Positions 1 through 64,000 of a DNA stretch of 64,000 nucleotides are shown here, piece after piece. The DNA comes from Promethearchaeota archaeon (GTDB taxonomy: Archaea > Asgardarchaeota > Heimdallarchaeia > Hodarchaeales > Hodarchaeaceae). The stretch is taken from NCBI GenBank assembly GCA_048938105.1, contig JBHLMN010000022.1:32001-96000 (forward strand), in the 5' to 3' direction. The notes under the pieces were generated by a model, which made no database searches, was not told where the DNA came from, and saw only the letters and a list, made by a program, of their open reading frames with translations. Numbering within the stretch: position 1 is the first letter of the stretch; every line of letters begins with the position of its first letter. The position numbers and the translations under genes were made by a program.

Positions 1-63
1 ACTCACTCCTCCTTGGTATTGTATAGGTGCTTATGACAATTCGATATAGTTCAAATCATCAAA
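1..63 (+). repeat. Array boundary site, copy 1 (left end cut by window; about 8 bp deleted in core)
   Basis: actcactcctccttggtattgtataggtgcttat matches the site consensus; right flank gacaattcgatatagttcaaatcatcaaa matches the right flank of the copy ending at 4527 (gaaaattcgagagagttcaaatcatcaaa). Confidence 0.8.
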
Positions 64-4368: not shown

Positions 4369-4527
4369 AAGACATTAATACTGGAACGATCAACAATGAG
4401 ATGAATGTGTGCGATGTGGAAAGAGGGGGTTGTTTTACCCATGTGAGGGGTGTCTCCAAAGGAAAAATCGAGTTGATGAAATCATTCCTCCTAGATATTC
4501 CTCAGATGCTTATTGACTCATGAAAAT
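4369..4527 (+). repeat. ATPase 5' remnant plus boundary site, copy 3
   Basis: Aligns to ~51362-51519; ends gcttattgactcatgaaaat. Confidence 0.9.
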
Positions 4528-7791: not shown

Positions 7792-8990
7792 TTATTTATT
7801 CTTTCTTCTAATTAACAAAAATAAACTAAAGAAAATAGCTATCATAAATGAAAATCCTGGAGTATCATCTGTAGTGTGAATTGTTGTCGTATCTGTTGAA
7901 TCATCTATTGTGTAACCAGTTGTTATAGAATTTACTAATGGAAAATGATCTATTCCACTTCCATTCCCACTAATCTCATAAGGAATGTTCCAAATGGTTC
8001 CATCATTGGCTGCACTTGGGTAGTTACTGATATAATCATCACCCCAATAATTCCCTGTGGTGCCATTATCCCAATGATTATCTATGCAATCATCTTTTTC
8101 AAAGGCTTGACCATTCGTATTTCCATAAATATCGTTAAAATAAATCGTATTTTTGTTACTCGAATGCTCTAAATAGATTCCATACTTATTATAACTTGCA
8201 GTATTACCAGAAAGAGTGTTATTGCTCGAAGAAGACAGCCAGATTCCAAAGTCATTCTTATTTACAGTATTCTTGATAAGTGTGTTGTAGTTGTTCGAAG
8301 AAGACAGCTGGATTCCATACTCATTGTAATTTGCAGTATTCCTGGAAAGTGTGTTGTTGTTGCTCGAATAATACAGGTAGATTCCACGACTATTGTTATT
8401 TGCCGTGTTCCTGGAAAGTGTGTTGTTGCTCGAAAGCCCCAAAAAGATTCCAAGACTATTGTTATATGCCGTATTCTTTGAAAGCGTGTTGTTACTCGAA
8501 GTAGATAGATAGATTCCATAAATAGAGTTATTACTTACATTATTCCCTGAAAGCGTGTTTTTGCTCGAAAGCCCCAACCAGATTCCAAGATTATTGTTAT
8601 TTGCAGTATTATTGCTGACATTTACATTTGTGGCATTAAATAAGTGAATTCCATCCATACCTTCAACTTTGCAATTCTGGATGATAAGATAGGCATCTGT
8701 GGATCGAATCTCAATCCCATGCGCAGTACTGGCCTCAATAAAAAGATTTTCAATAATATAAGGGGAAGATTTGGTACCATCCCCACTTAGTCCTTCATCC
8801 TCGATAAAGGTTGCCAATGCGTCATTCCCATCAATGAAAATCGGAGCATGTTTGACCGCAGAATTTAAATTCTCTTCAATGCTAGAATTAATTTCATGAA
8901 TTCTGATACGGTCAGAAGGCCAACTATTCAATCCCAATAACAGAACTGTTAGAATGGTTATAAATAAGAATTTAATTTTTTTAATTTCAA
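7792..8990 (-). CDS. NosD beta-helix surface protein with PGF-type C-terminal anchor; signal peptide apparently frameshifted in an A7 tract
   Basis: ORF 7792-8937 is a close paralog of 35886-37145; KFLFITILTVLLLGL is in frame upstream but the TTG at 8990 is out of frame by one base; C-terminus TPGFSFMIAIFFSLFLLIRRKNK. Confidence 0.8.
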
Positions 8991-13423: not shown

Positions 13424-13484
13424 TGAATCAACCCCTTTTTTGTATCGGTGTTTAATTACTCATGAAAATCCGAATTGAAATCAG
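13424..13484 (+). repeat. Array boundary site, copy 4 (degenerate left part)
   Basis: tgtatcggtgtttaattactcatgaaaatccgaattgaaatcag; left variant resembles copy 1, right flank resembles copies ending 25880 and 59315. Confidence 0.75.
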
Positions 13485-25772: not shown

Positions 25773-25880
25773 GGAAAGATGACATAGGGTTACTCCTAGG
25801 AGGGGTCTCTCCAAGGAAGAATGCGAGATGAGGACTCACTCCACCTAAATATTGCATGAGTGCTTCTTTACTCATGAATA
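25773..25880 (+). repeat. ATPase 5' remnant plus boundary site, copy 5 (full dyad)
   Basis: CATGAGT(25855-25861)-GCTTCTTT-ACTCATG(25870-25876); followed by a short GTPase-3' fragment to ~25927. Confidence 0.92.
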
Positions 25881-26261
25881 TTTCAATTGAAATTCATATA
25901 TGGTCTTGTTTTTGTAATACCTCAATCTTTCTTTTCTTTCCTGAATCCATTCAGTGCTCCGTTAAAAGTTGGTGAGCTTTACGATAAGTTTTTTTGTTTA
26001 AAGATTACGCTATATCCTTTTTTTTAATCCATTGACTCTTGTTTTTTTAACTTCCAACTCCAAATACAATTAATACTCCCCCGAATCCTATAAGGAAGTA
26101 AGCTCTGAACCTCAGGATTATTTTGATGGGTTTCGTGTACTCAGAAAATAAGTAGCTAGAACTTGATTAGTCTAATTCTAGGTGAGGTTTTTAAAGTAGA
26201 AAAATGTCCGTAATAAAATAAAAGCTTGAAAAAACCAATTTGATATCATTTCGAGTAAGGA

Positions 26262-33198: not shown

Positions 33199-33438
33199 AA
33201 TTAAGAAATGCTACAATTTCACGAAAATTGTTAAAGCAAAAGAAAAAGTCAAACAAACCCCCTAATTCTCCGTAATTGAGCTGTGCGCCAAAAATCACCG
33301 CGAAATTCGCATTGACTTCAATCACAATCCTCCAAACACCATAGTAGAGGAAGGAATCCTTCATATGAGTAGGCCAAATAATCAAGTAGAAAAGCTTTCA
33401 ACCTTAAAATTGTTAAAAATCATCATGCACATTGTCCA

Positions 33439-33462
33439 CTTTTGTACTCATGTTAATTCAGA
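33439..33462 (+). repeat. Array boundary site, copy 6 (degenerate)
   Basis: cttttgtactcatgttaattcaga vs cttatttactcatgaaaattcaga (37562); followed by a GTPase remnant as in copies 7 and 8. Confidence 0.65.
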
Positions 33463-33628
33463 TCTATAGATGAAAACTTGTTTTTGTAATACCTTAATCG
33501 CTAGATCATAAAAAATTGTATCGATAGTTTTTTTGTCGGTTAGGTTGGACTCATAATACGAAACTCCTAATTCTCTCGCTAAATTCTGGCCCTCTTCTGT
33601 TATTACAGTTCCTGATTCAATAATGAAC
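33463..33628 (-). pseudogene. Rab/Ras-like small GTPase C-terminal remnant
   Basis: VITEEGQNLARELGVSYYESNLTDKKTIDTIFYDLAIKVL resembles the alpha4-G5-alpha5 region of Rab/Ras GTPases; no P-loop present. Confidence 0.75.
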
Positions 33629-35349: not shown

Positions 35350-35427
35350 GTTCAGAATCCGTTAAAATAAAAAAAAATACATTCTAGTCAAAGATCAGTA
35401 GTAACTGCTTCATCAGTCAAGTTTTCG

Positions 35428-35554
35428 AGAGGATTTTTTCGAAGTGGAAAGAGGGGGTCGTTTTACTCATGGGAGGGGCTTCTCCAAGGAAGATTTTGAT
35501 ATGAGGACTCACTCCTCCTAAATTTTCCTCAGATGCTTATTGATTCATGAAAAT
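35428..35554 (+). repeat. ATPase 5' remnant plus boundary site, copy 7
   Basis: ttcgaagtggaaagagggg...gactcactcctccta...cctcagatgcttattgattcatgaaaat. Confidence 0.92.
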
Positions 35555-35825
35555 TCAGAATGAAATTCATATATCGCCTTTTTTTCGTAATACCTCAATA
35601 GCTAAATCATGAAAAATGGTTTCAATAGATTTTCTCTCAGTTAGGTTGGACTCATAATACGAAACTCCTAATTCATTCGCTAAATTCTGGCCCTCTTCTG
35701 TTGTTACAGTTTCCGATTCAGTGATAAACCCCAGGATCGCAATCGGAACTGAAGATTCAGGAATTTGATGAACTAAATTTCTTATTCAAATCTTTAACGG
35801 CTTTGAACGATGCCCTATCATCATA
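35555..35825 (-). pseudogene. Longest small-GTPase C-terminal remnant
   Basis: DDRASFKAVKD (frameshift) ...VPIAILGFITESETVTTEEGQNLANELGVSYYESNLTERKSIETIFHDLAIEVL. Confidence 0.78.
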
Positions 35826-35885: not shown

Positions 35886-37145
35886 TTATTGATTCTTTCT
35901 TCTAATTAACAAAAATATACTAATGAAAATAACTACCATGAATGAAAATCCCGGAGTCTCATCTGTGGTGTAATCAGTTGTTATAGAATTTACTAGCGGA
36001 AAATGATCTACTCCATTCCCATCTCCAACGATTTCATAAGAAATATTCCAAATTTTTCCATCGTTTGTAGCACTTGTATAATTATTGGTATAATCATCTC
36101 CCCAGTAATTCCCTGTGGTTCCATTATCCCAGCGATTATCCATGCAATCATATTTTTCATAAGCCTGACATTTCGTATTTCCATAAATATCATTAAAATA
36201 AATTGTATTGTTGTTGCTCGAAAAAATCAGACCGATTCCAACCCAATAGTTATAACTTACATTATTCCCAGAAAGAATGTTGCTGCTTGAATTAGCCAGA
36301 TAGATTCCATTACCATTGTAAATTGTAGAATTCCCCGAAACTTTGTTGTTGTTTACAGAATTCCCCAAAAGTGTGTTGTTTTTTGAACAATCCAACCAGA
36401 TTCCAACCCAACCATTATACCTTACTTTATTCCCAGAAAGGAGGTTGTCACCCGAAGAATACAGGTAGATTCCATTTAAACATTCGTTTTCAGAATTCCC
36501 CAGAAGTGTTTTGTTGTTTATAGAATTCCCCAGAAGCGTATTCTTGTTCAAAAAAAATAGGCCGATTCCTGCAATATTTTTATATCCAGAATTCTCGGAA
36601 AGAATGTTGTTGCTTGAATTAACCAGAGCGATTCCATAAAAATTGTAAATTAAAGAATTCCCCGAAAGCGTGTTGTTGGTTGATTTCCACAGATAGATTC
36701 CAAAAGGATTATTGGGGAGTAGATTATTGCGGATAGTTACATGTGCAGTATTATTTAAGAGAATTCCAACTGGAGTAATTCTAGGAAAACTTCCATTTCC
36801 ATCCTTCGCCCCACCTTCGATTAAGCAATTCTGGATGATAAGATAGGCATCCGTGAATCGTATCTCGATCCCAAACGCTGTACTGGCATTAATGATAAAA
36901 TTTTCAATAATATAAGGAGAGGCAGGAGTACCCTCCCCACTAAGTCCTTCATCCTCGATAAAGGTTGCCAACGCGTCATTCCCCTCAATATAAATCGGTG
37001 CATGACTCCCCACAGATTTAGAATTCCCTTTAAAGCTAGAATTATTTTCAGGTCGCGCAGGAAGGTCTGCAGGCCAACTCGTCAATCCAAGTAATAGAAT
37101 TGTAAGAATGGATATCAACAAGAATTTAGAACGGTTCAAGTTCAT
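35886..37145 (-). CDS. NosD beta-helix surface protein with PGF-type anchor (paralog of 7792-8990)
   Basis: HAPIYIEGNDALATFIEDEGLSG; NosD repeats; TPGFSFMVVIFISIFLLIRRKNQ; ORF track starts 37199. Confidence 0.9.
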   Translation of the reverse strand: MNLNRSKFLLISILTILLLGLTSWPADLPARPENNSSFKGNSKSVGSHAPIYIEGNDALATFIEDEGLSGEGTPASPYIIENFIINASTAFGIEIRFTDAYLIIQNCLIEGGAKDGNGSFPRITPVGILLNNTAHVTIRNNLLPNNPFGIYLWKSTNNTLSGNSLIYNFYGIALVNSSNNILSENSGYKNIAGIGLFFLNKNTLLGNSINNKTLLGNSENECLNGIYLYSSGDNLLSGNKVRYNGWVGIWLDCSKNNTLLGNSVNNNKVSGNSTIYNGNGIYLANSSSNILSGNNVSYNYWVGIGLIFSSNNNTIYFNDIYGNTKCQAYEKYDCMDNRWDNGTTGNYWGDDYTNNYTSATNDGKIWNISYEIVGDGNGVDHFPLVNSITTDYTTDETPGFSFMVVIFISIFLLIRRKNQ

Positions 37146-37342: not shown

Positions 37343-37560
37343 TGGTAAGAATTTCTTGAATGGGATTAAAAAACATCTCTTGATAAGAAGCTCGTAATTG
37401 ACTCTGAAACGGACGGTGGGACAACTCCTAGAGGGAAATCTGCCCATTGATCGAAACGATACAACGGCGTTCGTCGCGTTTGGCTTTCAAGAGCTGACGT
37501 AATTGCTCATATTCATTCCGAGGGAAGCCCAAGAGGTTTGCAATGTCAAAGGGATTGAAT
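37343..37560 (-). pseudogene. ATPase 3'-end remnant fused directly to the boundary site
   Basis: Aligns to ~49287-49552 (tgacgtaattgctcatattcat exact); joined at gaat|gcttat, so ~1.95 kb of the gene is missing. Confidence 0.88.
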
Positions 37561-37580
37561 GCTTATTTACTCATGAAAAT
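37559..37580 (+). repeat. Array boundary site, copy 8
   Basis: atgcttatttactcatgaaaat, exact core. Confidence 0.92.
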
Positions 37581-47620: not shown

Positions 47621-48067
47621 CAGTATCCAAGCCTTTCTTGCGAAACCACCCATGTTCCAAAGGACTTATGTAGATGTGGATCGATTTCGGATCAAAAATG
47701 GCATACTTCAACGAAAAGGTTTCTTTGACATGCTGGAAGACGTTAATACTGGAACGATCAACATTAAGAGGAATGTGTGCAAAGTGGAAAGAGGGGATCG
47801 TTTTTCTCATGGGAGAGGCCTCTCCAGAGAAGAAATCACTAAGGTTACTCACTCCTCCTAGGTATGGAAAAAGCGCTTATTTACTCATGAAAATGATTTC
47901 ATCGTGAGATAAACCTTTTTTAAGGCTCAAAGAGCTATTAACCTGTAGTTGGGATTTGGTTCAAAAGGGAAACCACCTTGAGGTATAGTAAAGTGGTTCT
48001 CATTTTAATGCTTTTCATTTGTCTAGTTGTCTGTGGATTATCCCAAGAGCTTCCCTTTACCCCTGAA
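47621..48067 (+). repeat. 447-bp direct repeat of 51246-51692: ATPase 5' remnant, boundary site copy 9 (ends 47894) and signal-peptide fragment
   Basis: Constant offset of 3625 bp; ORF 47517-47852 shares SPM.K.IPSFHF.HIPLNVDRSSIN with the ATPase N-terminus. Confidence 0.95.
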
Positions 48068-49278: not shown

Positions 49279-51495
49279 TTATTCTTTGGTCAGAATTTCC
49301 TGAATGGGATCAAAATACAATTGTTGATAAGAGTCACGCAATTGTTTCTGAAATGAAAGATTAGATAATTCATCTAAATCCATAGACAAGTCAGGATCTA
49401 AGAGAAACTCATTAGTCTTCAAGAGGGAAATCTGACCGTTGACCGAAATGATACAGCGGCGTTCATCTTGTTTAGCTTTTAATAATTGACGTAATTGCTC
49501 ATATTCATCCTTTGGAATACCTAAGAGATTCGAAACCTCGAAAGGGTTGAATTTCGTGAAGAAAAGAGTCAACAGGCCAGTGTTTGTTAACATAGGTTGG
49601 TCAATAATAGGTTCCGTGCCAATAAAAATCATAGAAATGTCATATGCACGTAAGGTCCAAGGGCCACGTCCAATCATAGATTCAGGAGATTTCGAACGGA
49701 AATTCTTCGCAGGAGCGAGCTTTTGGATCTCATCCAACACGAAGACATTTTTCGGCAACGATTCTTCTTTGAAAGGAGCTCGAAAGGTACGAACATAATA
49801 ATATAAATTCTGAAAGACCACATTTAGAAAAATCTCCCGCCCGCTTTGATCCTCCATAGCCTCAAAGGCAGAGAGGTCAATAATGGCATTCCGATCAAGG
49901 AGGTTGGCAACCTCAAAGGTGGTCTTTGATACCGTGAAACACCGCCCCGTATTACCAAAGAAGAGTTTTTCGACACGATTCAAGATGCCTGTCGCAGTAT
50001 TCTCAAGATAAGCCCCCTTCATTCCCAACTCATCGGGATTCTCCAGATAGAAAAGAAACCTCCGAAAATCCCCCTGATCTTTCACTGTTTGAATAACAGT
50101 AAGATGAAGCATCCGCCGCATCTGGGGAGATACAGCATCCTCATTATCAAAAATATGTTCTAGAATGGAGACCGCAAATTGGATATGGTCTTCAACAGGG
50201 ATAAGAGGTTGACCTGCATCATTCAGAGGAATTTGGAAGATATTAATCCCCCAAGGGAAGGAGGCAGACCCAGGCTTTAAGTAGAGAAAATCATCACAAA
50301 AAGTCCTAACAGGGGAAAGATACTCCCCTTTCGGATCAAAAATGAGAAATTTGACCCCTTTTTGGTGAAATTCGTTGATTAAACCATAAATGAAACGACT
50401 TTTGCCCTCACCTGTCATACCAAAAACAGCCATGTGCCGACAGAGGTCTTTCCCGTCAATTAATAAAGGAACATTAGAGGTTTTGCCGCTAATAATGGGA
50501 ATCCCAAGGTTGATGGCACGTTGAGGAGAAGTTTCACTTATACCCGTGGATAAGGTGTAATCAGATTTGTTGGGGACGAGAGTATACCCCTCGTGGGAGA
50601 ATTGCCGCTGAGGAGGAGCAATGAAACTCATTAGAGACGAACCATCCAAAGTAATGGGGGACACCAGCTTTCTGGAAACACACAACTTCCTGAGGGAAGG
50701 AAAACGTCTGAAAAAAGTGGGATAAGAGCGAGCTTTAAGTCCCTTAGAGACAAATAAGACAGATAAACGATTAAGCTTGGCTTTTAACAACTCAGGACTG
50801 GTTTCCACAACTAAAATCCGAGGAGAGAAGCGAAAACAACCAGCTTCCTCCATGATGTTCATTCGCTGAGGTTGGAAACGGCGTTCGACTTTACCCTGTT
50901 GAATATCAAAACGGACATGACTCAGATGCCGTTCCTGATCATCATCAGATTGGAACTTCTTGGGGACTTTGATGGATTTGAAGACAAATTGAAGAAAAGC
51001 AAATTGAGGATTGTCCGTCAAAATTTCAAGCAGATGATCAGTGAAACCATCAGCTGTGGTAAAAGGAGGTTCTGCAGTGCCCTCTAAACCAAGGATTCCT
51101 CCACAGAAAAAAGTAGGGCCATCTGTACTAACCTGAAAAGACTTAGTCAAAAGGTCAAGAAGCACATGAATCGGGGTGGGTTCAATCTTGTGAAAGTCAG
51201 GATGTAAGCCCATGGCAATAGCAAACTGCTGAATGGTGGCGATACCAGTATCTAAGCTTTTCTTGCGAAACCACCCGCGTTCAAGGGGACACATGTGGAT
51301 GTGGACAGATTTTGGATCAAAAATGGTATACTCCAACGAAAAGGTTTCTTTGGCATGCTGGAAGATGTTAATACTAGACCGATCAACATTAAGAGGAATG
51401 TGTTCGAAGTGGAAAGAGGGGATCGCTTTGCTCATGGGTGAGGCCTCTCTAAGGGAAAAATCGAGTTGATGACTCACTCCTCCTAGGTATTGCAT
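49279..51495 (-). CDS. HerA/FtsK/VirB4-superfamily P-loop ATPase (DUF87-like); only intact copy in the window
   Basis: RHMAVFGMTGEGKS (Walker A), FLIFDPKGEY, VFVLDEIQKL (Walker B); visibly GC-richer than its neighbours. Confidence 0.88.
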   Translation of the reverse strand: MQYLGGVSHQLDFSLREASPMSKAIPSFHFEHIPLNVDRSSINIFQHAKETFSLEYTIFDPKSVHIHMCPLERGWFRKKSLDTGIATIQQFAIAMGLHPDFHKIEPTPIHVLLDLLTKSFQVSTDGPTFFCGGILGLEGTAEPPFTTADGFTDHLLEILTDNPQFAFLQFVFKSIKVPKKFQSDDDQERHLSHVRFDIQQGKVERRFQPQRMNIMEEAGCFRFSPRILVVETSPELLKAKLNRLSVLFVSKGLKARSYPTFFRRFPSLRKLCVSRKLVSPITLDGSSLMSFIAPPQRQFSHEGYTLVPNKSDYTLSTGISETSPQRAINLGIPIISGKTSNVPLLIDGKDLCRHMAVFGMTGEGKSRFIYGLINEFHQKGVKFLIFDPKGEYLSPVRTFCDDFLYLKPGSASFPWGINIFQIPLNDAGQPLIPVEDHIQFAVSILEHIFDNEDAVSPQMRRMLHLTVIQTVKDQGDFRRFLFYLENPDELGMKGAYLENTATGILNRVEKLFFGNTGRCFTVSKTTFEVANLLDRNAIIDLSAFEAMEDQSGREIFLNVVFQNLYYYVRTFRAPFKEESLPKNVFVLDEIQKLAPAKNFRSKSPESMIGRGPWTLRAYDISMIFIGTEPIIDQPMLTNTGLLTLFFTKFNPFEVSNLLGIPKDEYEQLRQLLKAKQDERRCIISVNGQISLLKTNEFLLDPDLSMDLDELSNLSFQKQLRDSYQQLYFDPIQEILTKE

Positions 51496-51519
51496 GAGTG
51501 CTTATTTACTCATGAAAAT
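51471..51519 (+). other. Array boundary site, copy 10 (reference copy; putative recombination site)
   Basis: CATGAGT(51493-51499)-GCTTATTT-ACTCATG(51508-51514); overlaps the first ATG of the ATPase ORF. Confidence 0.85.
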
Positions 51520-51602
51520 GATTTCATCGTGAGATAAACCTTTTTTAAGGCCCCAAGAGCTAAGACCAATAGTCTGGGATTTGGATCAAAAGGGAAACCA
51601 CA

Positions 51603-54600
51603 TTGAAATGGAGTACCACAGTTCTCATACTAATGCTTTTCATTTGGCTATTGGTCTGTGGAAAAAGCCAAGAGCTTTCATTCACCCCTGAAAATCAACT
51701 CTCTAATGGTCAGGCTGCTGATCCTCGGTTTGGTAATTCCAAAATACATCAATACACTCCCCATGATCCCATTATTATTACAAGAAATAGTGATTTTGCC
51801 TCCCAAGGATATCCTGGTTCAGGAACTATTGATGATCCATATTGGATTAAGGGATTTAATATTACTTCTCCTGATGGTGATTTAATTGCCATTAGTGATA
51901 CTACTGCATATTTCTGTATTGCTAACAACTATCTCAATGGATTATCCACAGCGTGGGGAGGTATCGTCCTGAACAACGTTATTAACGGAATAATCGAAGA
52001 CAATCTCGTGTTAAACCATGAATATTTAGGAATAGTGACTTATTCCTCATCCAATATTGTTATAGTTAACAATATTGCTTTCAATAATGGTTTGAACGGA
52101 ATTCGACTTGAAATGGAATCAAATAATAACCTACTTGAAAACAATACTGTTCTGGATAACAAAGCAGATGGGATTTGGATGGGAATTTCATGTAACTATA
52201 ATAGGATTATCAATAATACGGTCTATGCTAACATTGGGATTGGAATCTATTTTGGTTTGGAAGATTTTTCATATACTGGGTGTAGTGATAGCTTCATTTT
52301 CCGTAATTTTATTTACAATAACAGCTATGGCATAAAATTCGAGTCTTCAGATAATAACATAATCATTGGTAATAAAATTTCCAATAATACTCATCATGCC
52401 ATTTATCTTGACGCTACGTCTGATAGTAACAGAATAGCAATTAATAATTTTTTTAACAATAATCTAGGGGAGCAGTCTCAAGCTTATGACGATGGAGCTG
52501 CCAATGTAATTTTTGCAAATCATTGGGACGACTGGATCACACCAGATGACGATGGAGATGGGATTGTCGACGCCCCCTACAATATCAGTGGTCTATCAAC
52601 AACACAAGATGGATTTGCACATGTATCTGCTATCATACCGCACAGCGACATTTCTATTGATGGAGATGCGATGTTTCATGCTACTGCGGCTGCCGAAAAT
52701 TGGCCTGGGAACGGAACCTTGTCAAATCCCTATATCATTGAGAGACTTATCATGATTGACATAAGGAATCGGACATTGATTGAAATTGCCAACACAAGCA
52801 TCCATTTTCAAATAAGAGACAGCTTACCTTGGGGAGGATCTATCGTTTTCTCTAAGGTTTCACATGGAATAATTCACAATAATACTATGGTTCGGAGTGG
52901 GATAGCCATTTATTCCTCCAGAAATTGTACCGTGTCAGATAATTTAGTAACTGGTGACTCAGGAGACGGAATACACCTCCTAAACTCCAATCACACATCC
53001 ATTCTTAGTAATCAAGTGTTCAATAATCAAGGTCAGGGAATTTCCATTGACACCTCTTGGGATAGCACCATCTCTGGAAATACTGTAAACAACAACAACG
53101 AAGACGGAATTCGCTTTAAGGATTCTACAGCCATTATTATTTCTAACAACACGGTTTCCCAAAACGGGGTTGGAATTTATCTTGGGAGTTCTAATAATAG
53201 CACTATTTCTAACAATATAGTCACCGACAACAAACACAATGGAATTTTTCTTGAGGATTCATCTAATAGCGCTATTTCCAACAATACAATCACTGGTTCT
53301 CCGTGGAGTGGAATTCGGCTATTAAATTCTAGTGAAAGTACCTTGGGAAATAATTCGATCACCGAATGTAGTGATGGAATTTCGGTTGATGAGTCGGAAA
53401 CACTCACCCTGACCAATAATATGGTCACTAGCAACAGTGCGGATGGAATTGACCTTTTTTATTCAGGGAATAGCATCCTATCGGGGAATATGGTCTCTAA
53501 TAATGGTGGTAATGGATTTAATATTTTTGATTCAGAGACCAGTGTTCTGACTGCCAATACAGCCTCTAATAACAATGACCTTGGAATTTTTCTTAGAGAT
53601 TCTACAGACATTACCCTTTCCAACAATACAATCAAGAGCAACAGCGGTGGAATTTTTCTTTGGTATTCTGGGAATAACACACTTGTGAGCAACACTATCA
53701 CAAACAATGGAAACATAGGAATAATCCTTGCTACTTCCAAAAACAATACGATTTTAGATAATATTTTGGTAAATAATGATCTTTTCATCGGGCATGCCGA
53801 AATTAATTGGGATATGCATGTGACATCTCCTACTCTAACTGATTATTTTCAAGCTGATGTAATGAACAATTCTATAAACGGGAAACCGCTCGTATATTGG
53901 CAACATGCTGCAGGTGGAACAATACCAGCTGGAGCTGCCCAGGTCATTCTGGTGAACTGTACGGCAGTAACAGTGGCGAATCAAGATCTTTCAAATGTCT
54001 TGTTTGGTTTACAAACGATTTCCAGCTCATGCGTGTCCATCTTAAACAATGTCATAGTTAATACTAGTATATCTGGAATCTATCTTCTAGATTCTATTAA
54101 TAGCACGATTGCTGATAATAAAATTACACACAACTATGGACTTGGAATTTTTCTTCAGGATTCTAATTCTAGCGCTATTTCCAACAATACGGTCACCAAC
54201 AACAGACACAATGGAATTTTTCTTGAGGATTCTAACAATAGCAATAGTTCAAAGAATGTTGTCACCGACAATGATGGTCATGGATTTTATCTTGGGAATT
54301 CTAAGAATTGTATGATTTCATCAAACATTATTTCTTACAATCGTGGAAAGGGAGTCGAAGTTAATGATTCTACCAACATCATCATTTCCAGCAATACCAT
54401 CTCTAGTAACGACAATGGGATTCATCTTGAGAATTCATGCAATAGCGTTATCTCTGACAATACAATAAACTACAATGAGGAAGACGGAATTCTATTTAGG
54501 GCCTCGGAGAATAGCACTATTTCCAACAATACGGTATCCAATAACATGAAAGGAATTATTCTTGGGGCCTCTGGGAATTGTGTTATTTATAACAATACAA

Positions 54601-55190
54601 TCACTGACCATGATTTTCAGGGAATCGAAATTCATCGTTCTACAGCTATTACTATTTCCAACAATATAGTCTCCAACAACGACAACAATGGAATTATCCT
54701 TGAGAATTCATCCAATAGCGTTATTTCTGACAATACAATAAACTACAATAGCGGAAACGGAATTGTATTTTGGTACGATGAAATCTTAATTTCTAAAAAT
54801 AACTTAATTTCTCATAATACAGTGTCTAACAATAGTGGATATGGTATTTTTATAGGTGGATCATCTAAGTTTTGCAATGTATCGTGGAACATTTTTAATG
54901 GGAATAATCGTGAGGGAACATCTCAAGCTAAAGACGATGGAAGAAATAATACCTTTGAACATAATTACTGGGACGATTGGACGGAACCCGACACGGACGG
55001 GGATGGGGTTGTTGATACACCTTATGATATTGATGGTGATGCAGAGAATCAAGATATGTACCCACGCGTTTCTCCAAATCCTGTTTCCACCCCATTTTTG
55101 AGCGAAAATATCCTCATGGGGTTAGTTTTTCTCGTACTCATCCTTCCTGTCCTGGGGATCTTAATTCGCAAGCAGAAGAGAAATTTTTGA
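51603..55190 (+). CDS. Large NosD/CASH beta-helix surface protein with TM anchor
   Basis: Signal peptide, two HxxIxI/GxGTxxNPY modules, many beta-helix repeats, TPFL-TM-RKQKR tail. Confidence 0.92.
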   Translation: MKWSTTVLILMLFIWLLVCGKSQELSFTPENQLSNGQAADPRFGNSKIHQYTPHDPIIITRNSDFASQGYPGSGTIDDPYWIKGFNITSPDGDLIAISDTTAYFCIANNYLNGLSTAWGGIVLNNVINGIIEDNLVLNHEYLGIVTYSSSNIVIVNNIAFNNGLNGIRLEMESNNNLLENNTVLDNKADGIWMGISCNYNRIINNTVYANIGIGIYFGLEDFSYTGCSDSFIFRNFIYNNSYGIKFESSDNNIIIGNKISNNTHHAIYLDATSDSNRIAINNFFNNNLGEQSQAYDDGAANVIFANHWDDWITPDDDGDGIVDAPYNISGLSTTQDGFAHVSAIIPHSDISIDGDAMFHATAAAENWPGNGTLSNPYIIERLIMIDIRNRTLIEIANTSIHFQIRDSLPWGGSIVFSKVSHGIIHNNTMVRSGIAIYSSRNCTVSDNLVTGDSGDGIHLLNSNHTSILSNQVFNNQGQGISIDTSWDSTISGNTVNNNNEDGIRFKDSTAIIISNNTVSQNGVGIYLGSSNNSTISNNIVTDNKHNGIFLEDSSNSAISNNTITGSPWSGIRLLNSSESTLGNNSITECSDGISVDESETLTLTNNMVTSNSADGIDLFYSGNSILSGNMVSNNGGNGFNIFDSETSVLTANTASNNNDLGIFLRDSTDITLSNNTIKSNSGGIFLWYSGNNTLVSNTITNNGNIGIILATSKNNTILDNILVNNDLFIGHAEINWDMHVTSPTLTDYFQADVMNNSINGKPLVYWQHAAGGTIPAGAAQVILVNCTAVTVANQDLSNVLFGLQTISSSCVSILNNVIVNTSISGIYLLDSINSTIADNKITHNYGLGIFLQDSNSSAISNNTVTNNRHNGIFLEDSNNSNSSKNVVTDNDGHGFYLGNSKNCMISSNIISYNRGKGVEVNDSTNIIISSNTISSNDNGIHLENSCNSVISDNTINYNEEDGILFRASENSTISNNTVSNNMKGIILGASGNCVIYNNTITDHDFQGIEIHRSTAITISNNIVSNNDNNGIILENSSNSVISDNTINYNSGNGIVFWYDEILISKNNLISHNTVSNNSGYGIFIGGSSKFCNVSWNIFNGNNREGTSQAKDDGRNNTFEHNYWDDWTEPDTDGDGVVDTPYDIDGDAENQDMYPRVSPNPVSTPFLSENILMGLVFLVLILPVLGILIRKQKRNF

Positions 55191-55326
55191 GGTAAAATAT
55201 ACGACATAAAAAGCATTTAAGCCTCAAAAAGCTACAACCCGTAATTTGGGATTAGGTCCAAAGGTGATTCTCTGGGGAAAAAAAAAAAGGTATTTCTCAA
55301 AAAAAGGGATGAGTATGTGATATGCA

Positions 55327-55375
55327 GACTCACTCCTCCTAGGTATTGAAAAAGCGCTTATTTACTCATGAAAAT
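55327..55375 (+). repeat. Array boundary site, copy 11
   Basis: gactcactcctcctaggtattgaaaaagcgcttatttactcatgaaaat. Confidence 0.93.
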
Positions 55376-57316: not shown

Positions 57317-57395
57317 CTATTAGCTTTCACTTATACTTTACGAGACCAATTTAGGACAAAAACCTGAACAAGAATACAAGATGGGTGTATTCGGA
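57317..57395 (+). repeat. 79-bp repeat (partner 33707-33785)
   Basis: Gap-free alignment with 33707-33785. Confidence 0.85.
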
Positions 57396-57397
57396 TT

Positions 57398-57549
57398 GAA
57401 ATTTACAGGTCGCCTGTGTTTCGTAAAACCTCAATCGATAAATCATGCAAAATTGTTTCGATAGTTTTTCTGTCAGTTGGTGTAGACTCAAAATACAGAA
57501 CTCTCAACTCATCCGCTAATTCAGGCCCTCGTCAGTTGTTACAGTTTCC
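57398..57549 (-). pseudogene. Small-GTPase 3' remnant
   Basis: acctcaatcgataaatcatg...gatagtttttctgtcagt...gttgttacagtttcc colinear with ~35562-35714. Confidence 0.75.
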
Positions 57550-57575: not shown

Positions 57576-58922
57576 TTAAATCCTTAAGTTGTAATGGAGG
57601 GTGTCTTGTAAATCTTGGATTTCTGCAATTGGAACTTGATTCACATGTGTCAGGGGATTATCGGTTAGAATAACATATTTTAAAGCGGGACAGGAGTCTA
57701 GCGGGGAGAGATCAATGGTTTCCAACGAATTCCTATTAAAGAATAACTCCCATAACGACGGATGATTCCTGAACGGGGATAGATCAATGGAGGTAATAGC
57801 ATTATCACCCAACCTGAGTTCACGAAATTTAGGACAGTGCTGCAAGGGGGAAAGGTCTATGGTCTGAAAACGATTGTGGCTCAAGTCGAGATCTTTGAAT
57901 TCAGGTAACTGTGCCAACGGGGAAAGGTCAAGAGCGGTTAATTCATTGTCTTTCAATGAAATTTCTTCTAGATGGTCACAATTTCTGAGGGGGGAGAGGT
58001 CAAGACTTTGAAGTCCGTTATTAAATATAGTTATATCTTCTAGACTGTTTTTCGGAGGCATGGGGGGTAACACAACGGATGTCAAGGTTCTTAAAGAAAG
58101 AATTCCAATATATCTTAGGACAGGGAGGTGAGCTAATGGGGTCAAGTCAAGAGTCTGAAAATCGGTTCCTTCCGATAATTCGAAGTGGGTCAATTTCTGA
58201 CAATATCGAATCAGGTCAAAACAGACCATATCAATGATGTTCAAGTTTTCAGGGATCTTGAATTCGGTGATATCTCGTGTTTCCTTGAGTGGTTCCAAGG
58301 AGATGTACGGAAAGTCAAGGAATACATTCTTAATGAATGTTTCTTCAATGATCCGTGTAGGTGGGAAGAATCTTTCCATGAACAGAGTACACGGGACATA
58401 AGCATTCCCTGTTTCTTCATCTCGAATGACCCGATAATCAGTAAATGTTGAGATAAGGCGCGCCTGATCAATAATCTCAGATAATGTCAGGTCAATCTTC
58501 TCTGGTATTTCGGGATAAATAATCAATTGACTCTTTCGCCCAAAGACATACCCGCTATATTTTATTTCTAATTCTTCTGGATCAAAGATTGTTTCTGAGA
58601 TTGGCATCCAAACAGGTCTTTCTAGAACTTCGTTGATAGAGATCCGTTCATAGTTTTTCTTCATCTTTTCTTTACTAATCGTGGTTAAGGGACAAAGATA
58701 AAATACTAGATCCTGGTCACGGTATTCTAACACGGTATACAGATAATTCGTGGGATCGCCGAGATTCACGTTGAGTTCTTGGGCGACTAATGTGGCAATG
58801 ATAGAATCATCTTTGTCATACCGCAATTCACGCCTTGTTTGAGCAATCTTCTCGCTTATTTCCGCCTTCGAGAGTTGTTTCTGTTCGTGGATCTTCCTGA
58901 TTACCTGTTCCTTACTCTGCAT
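57576..58922 (-). CDS. LRR protein with N-terminal helical domain resembling the archaeal RPA/DUF2240 N-terminus
   Basis: Repeated N.L..LDLSPL..C..L; N-terminus EQVIRKIHEQKQLSKAEISEKI...IATLVAQELNVNL. Confidence 0.85.
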   Translation of the reverse strand: MQSKEQVIRKIHEQKQLSKAEISEKIAQTRRELRYDKDDSIIATLVAQELNVNLGDPTNYLYTVLEYRDQDLVFYLCPLTTISKEKMKKNYERISINEVLERPVWMPISETIFDPEELEIKYSGYVFGRKSQLIIYPEIPEKIDLTLSEIIDQARLISTFTDYRVIRDEETGNAYVPCTLFMERFFPPTRIIEETFIKNVFLDFPYISLEPLKETRDITEFKIPENLNIIDMVCFDLIRYCQKLTHFELSEGTDFQTLDLTPLAHLPVLRYIGILSLRTLTSVVLPPMPPKNSLEDITIFNNGLQSLDLSPLRNCDHLEEISLKDNELTALDLSPLAQLPEFKDLDLSHNRFQTIDLSPLQHCPKFRELRLGDNAITSIDLSPFRNHPSLWELFFNRNSLETIDLSPLDSCPALKYVILTDNPLTHVNQVPIAEIQDLQDTLHYNLRI

Positions 58923-59189
58923 CCCGAGCCCTCATGCTACGCGTTTTCCACCCATACCTGCTTGAGTTGAATATATTTTTGATCATTCTGATGATTGATC
59001 TCAACTTCTCTTACCTCCATAAATACCCTTTGTTTTTATGTCTGCTATGGTGATTTGTCTCTATCACGAATCAGTTCAGTCATCCAATAGTATAAGGGGC
59101 CAAAGAACATCCCAAAAAGTCCGACCACGAAAAGTACAGGGGAGACTAAGGTAAGGTCAACTCCATAAACGAATTCCCAATAAGATCGC

Positions 59190-59315
59190 GAGGAATGTGT
59201 TCGAAGTGGAAAGAGGGAGTCGTTTTACTCATGGGAGGGGTCTCTCCAAGGAAAATTCTACGATGTAGCTTACTCCTCCTAGGTATTGCAGAGGTTCTTA
59301 TTTACTCCTGAAAAT
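59190..59315 (+). repeat. ATPase 5' remnant plus boundary site, copy 12
   Basis: gaggaatgtgttcgaagtggaaagaggg exact to the ATPase; ends cttatttactcctgaaaat. Confidence 0.92.
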
Positions 59316-63980: not shown

Positions 63981-64000
63981 AGTGATTATTTACTCATGAA
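63981..64000 (+). repeat. Array boundary site, copy 13 (cut by window end)
   Basis: agtgattatttactcatgaa. Confidence 0.7.

Follow-up and report, generated by a model that had tools for sequence, protein, structure and literature searches.

Archaeal core promoters recognized by TBP and TFB are composed of two conserved blocks separated by an unconstrained gap, located on a fixed strand and at a fixed distance from the start codon. Core sites of tyrosine recombinases consist of two inverted arms around an overlap of 6-8 bp and are conserved within one system. Orphan or relic arrays, formed by sequential displacement, are represented by the Rhs and CdiA-CT orphan modules and by the orphan immunity arrays of the type VI secretion system (T6SS) of Vibrio cholerae. 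Here we describe a repeated 20-nucleotide (nt) element upstream of a VirB4/HerA-superfamily ATPase gene in a Promethearchaeota archaeon of the order Hodarchaeales (GenBank contig JBHLMN010000022.1), and compare it with these systems. The analyzed stretch, called the window below, has 64,000 nt and is part of the 108-kb contig C37 of a metagenome-assembled genome (MAG, labelled G000) of 5.85 Mb, which is 99% complete with 7% contamination. Positions are those of the window unless a contig label precedes them. The balance of evidence leans towards a putative promoter, left behind in many copies by the turnover of an island of surface-protein genes.

The conserved core occupies positions 51500-51519 on the minus strand, which is the strand of the ATPase gene. 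It is formed by an AT-rich octamer (TAAATAAG) that follows 11-12 conserved nucleotides, an arrangement suggestive of an element of BRE/TATA type (BRE, factor B recognition element). A second conserved block of 21 nt (51472-51492, minus strand), AT-rich at first and then containing a GGAGG run, begins 14 nt after the octamer, a distance constant in almost all loci. Between the two blocks sits a variable heptamer (51493-51499), to which no strand applies. Second block, heptamer and core make up a 49-nt unit, present at eight of the 11 recognizable local cores; the second block is found with the same spacing in orthologous loci as well. Judged by its position, it is located where a start site or the start of a leader would be expected.

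A preliminary description of this DNA had noted that the right-hand part of the site, with its A-rich tail, is nearly invariant, and we can confirm this. The 20-nt core occurs 11 times with at most two mismatches in the 5.85-Mb genome, always on the + strand of C37. A profile search (nhmmer, 52-nt region) found 13 copies at E<0.1, all on C37, all co-oriented and spanning C37:24985-97834, so that they are confined to ~73 kb. Among 20 congener genomes within Hodarchaeales/Heimdallarchaeia (G009 being CP070695.1 and G017 a Hodarchaeota MAG), six contain the core one to three times, as against 0-1 matches for a reversed control pattern. A core-like motif precedes 17 of the 30 ATPase homologues in the genus. 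In the nine closest homologues carrying it, the core lies 62-64 nt upstream of the conserved ATG, and even in a distant paralogue with 58% protein identity 64 nt separate it from an upstream ATG (manual count). At every intact homologue that has the core, it is found on the strand of the ATPase gene. It is missing, with the second block kept, in a sub-clade of homologues whose upstream gene ends ~40-60 nt before the ATG; this loss fits read-through co-transcription from the upstream gene.

The gene behind the 49-nt unit (49279-51435, minus strand) codes for a HerA/FtsK-superfamily ATPase of 718 amino acids with matches to Pfam families DUF87 and TrwB_AAD_bind, and it is the sole intact VirB4/HerA-superfamily ATPase gene of the island. 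Its open reading frame (ORF) had been listed as 49279-51495, the ATG at 51495, inside the left arm of the inverted repeat discussed below, being merely the first in-frame start; comparison of homologues places the conserved start at 51435. Matches to CedD/VirB4 are weak, and the N-terminal 330 residues have no Pfam match. An AlphaFold model (mean pLDDT 72), built on an alignment of 23 homologues, was matched by Foldseek to the full length of TrwK/VirB4 from the type IV secretion system of R388 (E 1e-15); this VirB4-like model extends over the whole length, with no nuclease or recombinase domain in the ATPase. The orthologue in G009 is 87% identical and is surrounded by an ABC ATPase-like gene, a gene for a 553-residue protein and a NosD-like gene. 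Downstream follows an ORF of 724 residues, the start of which is overlapped by the orthologue for 4 nt, and NosD-like ORFs of C37 match that stretch. The two-domain VirB4/TrwK-like model and the overlap in G009 hint at a role in secretion or surface assembly, not in DNA repair.

The likeness to archaeal BRE/TATA promoters concerns several traits. The AT-rich octamer is conserved together with its upstream extension, has a constant distance to the start codon among orthologues and is oriented with the gene. An unconstrained gap and then a proximal block follow, and the core is lost where co-transcription with the upstream gene is probable. The octamer resembles AT-rich boxes located 20-40 nt upstream of host tRNA genes and is mildly (1.6x) enriched in divergent versus convergent intergenic regions. 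Two traits differ, however: the textbook BRE consensus is shorter and more purine-rich than the conserved stretch upstream of the octamer, and many copies here have no gene to drive. All considered, we hold it somewhat more probable than the opposite that the 49-nt unit is the putative core promoter and leader start of the VirB4/HerA-like ATPase gene. It would then comprise a BRE/TATA-type element, an unconstrained gap of 7-8 nt and a proximal or initiator region with the start of the leader.

The same site had been proposed in the preliminary description to have the geometry of a recombinase site, with inverted arms of 7 bp around an 8-bp spacer. Such a dyad is present at 51493-51514; the 22-mer recurs at 25855-25876 with a single mismatch, located in the spacer, and 9 of 12 positions pair if the arms are extended to 12 nt (manual count). 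A third, weaker match to the 22-mer is found at 37554. Since this geometry occurs at chance frequency in the window, the dyad carries no statistical weight: perfect 7-bp inverted repeats with an 8-bp spacer number 10 versus 7.7 in shuffles, and inverted repeats with at least 9 of 12 paired positions number 48 versus 48.2. What does carry weight is the repetition of the 22-mer, and this stems from the paralogy of two copies, not from conservation of the dyad.

The left arm, correctly described as variable, has near-zero information across 28 sites in 10 genomes (~0-0.6 bit per column, compared with 1.2-1.8 bits in the columns of the 20-nt core). It is complementary to the right arm at all seven positions in two of the 13 local copies (51493-51499 and 25855-25861) and at six of seven in a copy on contig C110 of G003; mean complementarity over the 28 sites is 3.2 of 7 versus 1.83 for random heptamers. 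At the eleven sites located in other genomes upstream of ATPase homologues, it ranges from 1 to 5 of 7, and full complementarity is found at none of the intact orthologous loci. The inverted arms are thus not conserved upstream of orthologous ATPase genes, a finding that the preliminary description had itself set in advance as speaking against the recombinase-site geometry, and that part of its claim is not supported. The dyad in two copies is an accident of an unconstrained gap.

The heptamers themselves fall into discrete variants. One is shared by the copies at 47875 and 55356, another by those at 4508 and 35535, and the variant forming the dyad occurs at 25862, at 51500 and in the G003 C110 copy. 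Between copies with 84-90% identical flanks, the heptamer differs at 4-6 of 7 positions.

The flanks of the copies are a mosaic. On the left, the classes are the ATPase 5' end, the tail of a NosD gene, a 3' fragment of the ATPase gene and unrelated sequence. The classes on the right are the 3' end of a small-GTPase gene, that of a NosD gene on the minus strand, a NosD 5' region and a "native" flank also found in G003. Left and right classes are freely combined. In a self-comparison of the window, ATPase 5' stubs beginning at 4369, 25773, 35425, 47621 and 59186 all abut the 49-nt unit, and several copies have on their right a GTPase 3' end of the same strand. The stop codon of the intact GTPase gene (C37:97825-98358) falls inside the core. 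Because flank homologies switch exactly at the core, recombination there is real and has happened repeatedly. That much of the crossover-site proposal survives, as switching at the 20-nt right-hand element; its conserved arms do not, and no recombinase gene lies on the contig.

The stubs are 60-84% identical to each other, approximately the distance between orthologues of different species, and dN/dS (the ratio of nonsynonymous to synonymous substitution rates) is ~0.36 for one stub by manual count. With this divergence and dN/dS, conservation of the core could date from a time when the copies still had a function. Near-identity is seen in a single pair, that of the 48-nt site itself (47847-47894 versus 55328-55375). 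On these distances the relic copies are old.

We propose the following history. In the ancestral order, the ATPase gene would have stood directly downstream of the small-GTPase gene, whose stop codon lay inside the conserved block. A module of GTPase, ATPase and surface-protein genes may then have undergone many rounds of duplication, import or overwriting, all in one orientation, leaving 13 promoter copies, most of them with short ATPase 5' stubs. Exchange between modules could proceed by unequal crossover, by Campbell-type insertion of excised circles and by gene conversion. Flanks would switch in the promoter because it is the sole stretch kept similar between diverged modules. With no recombinase on the contig, no conserved attC-like fold and no phage or plasmid partner site, short-homology exchange between promoter copies would suffice.

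Displacement arrays offer a parallel to this history. As there, partial copies of variable length of a conserved gene end are co-oriented and have one common boundary with the variable part, and the copies here are as diverged as alleles of different lineages. In contrast to those arrays, the conserved piece is the putative promoter with the 5' end of the gene rather than a 3' core, relics flank the intact ATPase gene (49279-51435) on both sides instead of in a one-sided order, and the cargo consists of surface proteins rather than toxin-immunity pairs.

Several observations weigh against the promoter and its exchange by homology. The genome-wide k-mer test for a TATA consensus gave weak enrichment, and four copies lie between convergent gene ends, where there is no gene for a promoter to drive. 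The breakpoints are very sharp: in most pairs the left-type homologies stop at 51519 +/-2, and the longer ones continue into a GTPase-side flank common to both copies; right-type homologies begin 0-7 nt left of the core (~51493-51500) at three or more independent junctions. What the copies at 37561, 63984 and 13450 share is limited to the core and, towards the ATPase, 0-7 nt. Two left and two right flank classes are found in each of the four possible combinations. Exchange driven by homology alone cannot make the first junctions with non-homologous DNA at the exact edges of the core. Finally, heptamer variants are common to copies with different flanks and differ where flanks are similar.

The exact first junctions and the shared heptamer variants, which the promoter model leaves unexplained, keep alive a dedicated site-specific mechanism. 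The core would then be a true site-specific recombination site of attachment (att) or cassette type, served by a recombinase encoded elsewhere in the genome, which we consider unlikely. Units of a single gene or a few genes, such as the NosD unit at 51520-55375, would be excised as circles and re-inserted at other cores, building a co-oriented, integron-like array inside the ATPase promoter. The 13 co-oriented copies within ~73 kb of one contig agree with this, as do the four flank combinations, the 49-bp direct repeats bracketing a single gene and the orphan cores with unrelated ATPase-side flanks in G003 and G011. Breakpoints cluster at both edges of the core, and the core is common to left- and right-type homologies, as att sites are. 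Three tyrosine recombinase (PF00589) genes are present in the genome, all on other contigs (C14:174285-174773, C56:201681-202088 and C45:377-844).

Against such a mechanism stands the fixed distance between core and ATG, kept even in distant paralogues, which is expected of a promoter and not of an att site. There are neither conserved inverted arms nor a conserved hairpin: DNA folds of seven copies gave z from -2.5 to +1.5, with a hairpin only in the two dyad copies, and an attC-like single-strand fold was rejected as not conserved among them. A recombinase gene linked to the site is absent from the 108-kb C37, where four Pfam families were searched: no tyrosine recombinase, resolvase (serine recombinase), Y1 transposase TnpA or TnpB was found on the contig, and the genome-wide matches to the last three are likewise all on other contigs. 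The flanks of the units are restricted to this genome; movement from one genome to another is thus not seen, and for the NosD unit it was rejected. As no pair of copies is near-identical beyond the 48-nt site, there is no sign of recent activity.

With loxP, FRT, lambda att and Xer/dif sites the locus shares a short common core, where the flanks of the two sides are exchanged, and direct repeats that bracket an inserted unit, but it has neither conserved inverted arms nor a linked recombinase. The flank exchange within a common core is equally expected from short-homology exchange. The archaeal dif site is a 28-bp sequence with imperfect inverted arms of 11 bp and a 6-bp spacer, unique in each Thermococcales genome examined and located in the replication termination region (PMC2958812). 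The locus does not agree with this published site, as there are 13 copies in 73 kb, only two of which have 7-bp arms and an 8-bp spacer.

With integron attC arrays the locus shares co-oriented repeated sites between units of one to few genes, and units without a recombinase of their own. Unlike in integrons, no IntI is encoded beside the array, no folded single-strand structure is seen, the genes lie in both orientations, probably with promoters of their own, and identity between the sites is one of sequence, not of structure. An integron-like platform that lacks a linked integrase, where the 20-bp core in the ATPase promoter serves as the crossover site and an unlinked or unknown recombinase shuffles surface-protein cassettes, seems to us rather unlikely. 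If the core truly were a crossover site, Asgard archaea would have a new type of cassette system.

Distinctly improbable, in our view, is an operator, although the preliminary description had offered one as the alternative to a crossover site. It would be formed either by the dyad or by the conserved nucleotides preceding the octamer, and a transcription factor bound there, in overlap with the TATA-like box, would repress or activate the ATPase gene. Where the dyad is present, in two copies, its spacer coincides exactly with the AT-rich octamer region; the conserved stretch beside the octamer (11-12 nt) is longer than a typical factor B recognition element and contains a 6-bp palindrome. In other genomes, however, none of the eleven sites that precede ATPase homologues has the left half-site conserved, and no regulator gene is conserved beside the ATPase gene. 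What remains of the proposal is a regulatory site at the 5' end of the ATPase gene, which comes near to the promoter favoured here; the supposed overlap with the ATPase start is lost, as the site is ~64 nt upstream of it.

Inert debris of segmental duplication, with sharp boundaries as alignment artefacts around a short conserved island in saturated non-coding DNA, is very improbable: between-species alignments naturally stop at the last conserved element and several cores are decayed (window 1-34, C37:24985, 33432 and 57369), but within the genome flanks of 80-90% identity stop abruptly at the core and give way to unrelated sequence, and the cores of the four copies between convergent gene ends have together 5 mismatches in 80 positions versus ~26% divergence in the adjoining stubs (manual counts).

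If the promoter reading holds, the core is an ordinary cis-regulatory element. For Hodarchaeales, which among archaea are nearest to eukaryotes, few conserved and testable promoter candidates exist, and the element would be one of them; it could also serve as a marker for dating and ordering the turnover of the surface-protein gene island.

Searches for partners of the site in other sequences gave the following picture. An 18-mer scan of viral contigs returned matches in unrelated contexts, and a 20-mer scan of metagenome contigs returned four matches, whose printed contexts are unrelated; the end of a mobile element or its partner site was rejected, as no related site appeared in either scan. 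A scan of genome contigs yielded two recognized Hodarchaeal/Heimdall records (the G009 chromosome and YT1_021), most of the others being bacterial with contexts unread. A known RNA or tRNA target was also rejected: the window has no tRNA gene and, at the gathering threshold, no Rfam match, and a search around the site gave none at E<=1 either. The same applies to a structured 5' leader or a hairpin sequestering a Shine-Dalgarno sequence, since RNAalifold predicts nothing and pair counts do not exceed those of shuffles. The paper on circularized Heimdallarchaeum genomes makes no mention of VirB4, HerA, attachment sites or direct repeats (PMC8813620).

The other copies in the window, all on the minus strand, are as follows. 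At its left end, a degenerate copy (1-34) has an intact second block and a core with an internal deletion. The core at 4508-4527 carries an ATPase 5' stub (4369-4479) and lies between convergent gene ends, and that at 13450-13469 is a core-only copy with an unrelated left flank. The second full dyad belongs to the core at 25862-25881, which has a relic of the ATPase 5' leader at 25773-25861 and, on its right, a short remnant of a GTPase 3' end. The core at 35535-35554 lies between a stub of the ATPase 5' end (35425-35507) and a relic of the GTPase C-terminus (35567-35785). At 37561-37580, the core stands between an ATPase 3' fragment on the left (37430-37560, 78% identical to 49422-49552) and a GTPase relic on the right. 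The copy at 47875-47894, which has a stub of the ATPase 5' end (47621-47852) and a stump of a NosD 5' end, is part of a segmental duplicate of 51246-51692 with 84% identity. A full 49-nt unit without ATPase sequence surrounds the core at 55356-55375, where the tail of the NosD gene lies to the left and the right flank resembles the native upstream flank in G003. The core at 59296-59315, with its ATPase 5' stub at 59186-59268, is found upstream of a same-strand LRR gene (57576-58922); the copies at 37561 and 63984 likewise precede genes on their own strand. The last copy (63984-64000) runs 3 nt beyond the window end; its left flank is unrelated, and on the right a second NosD gene contributes its 5' region. 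Further GTPase 3' relics are present at 33432-33628 and 57369-57549, one with a degenerate core and the other with unrelated sequence at the position of the core.

Orphan cores similar to those described here were found in G003, G011, G012 and G014. Outside the island, a weak relic in the host genome (C63:104940-105030) consists of a core-like block, the second block, the leader and an ATPase stub of 12 codons, which is of the G009/G014 allele type. The orphan core on contig C72 of G011 has an upstream-side flank that, from ~100 nt off the core, is 93% identical to the flank of this relic. Synteny among G000, G003 and G009 is limited to short blocks of 1-3 kb over many contigs (for example C110, C180 and C204 of G003). 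With only such short syntenic blocks between members of the genus, rearrangement must be very frequent genome-wide, beyond this island.

The remaining genes of the island code for NosD/beta-helix, LRR, Kelch and TPR proteins, FtsX/ABC transporters and housekeeping functions. The gene of the NosD/beta-helix surface protein (51603-55190, plus strand, assigned by Pfam) lies between the 49-nt units at 51471-51519 and 55327-55375, direct repeats that are 92% identical. Three paralogous NosD 5' regions (51541-51610, 47916-47990 and C37:96004-96182) have a T-rich box ~55 nt upstream of a conserved TTG start; in a fourth paralogue (C56:142429-142550), what is shared is confined to the signal peptide and the ~25 nt that precede the start. 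It is probable that the NosD units have promoters of their own. Periodic repeats of 66-69 nt in the NosD/beta-helix genes, at 8137-8632, 36209-36688 and 53035-54734, correspond to beta-helix turns of 23 residues, and blocks of these repeats are common to genes 28 kb apart.

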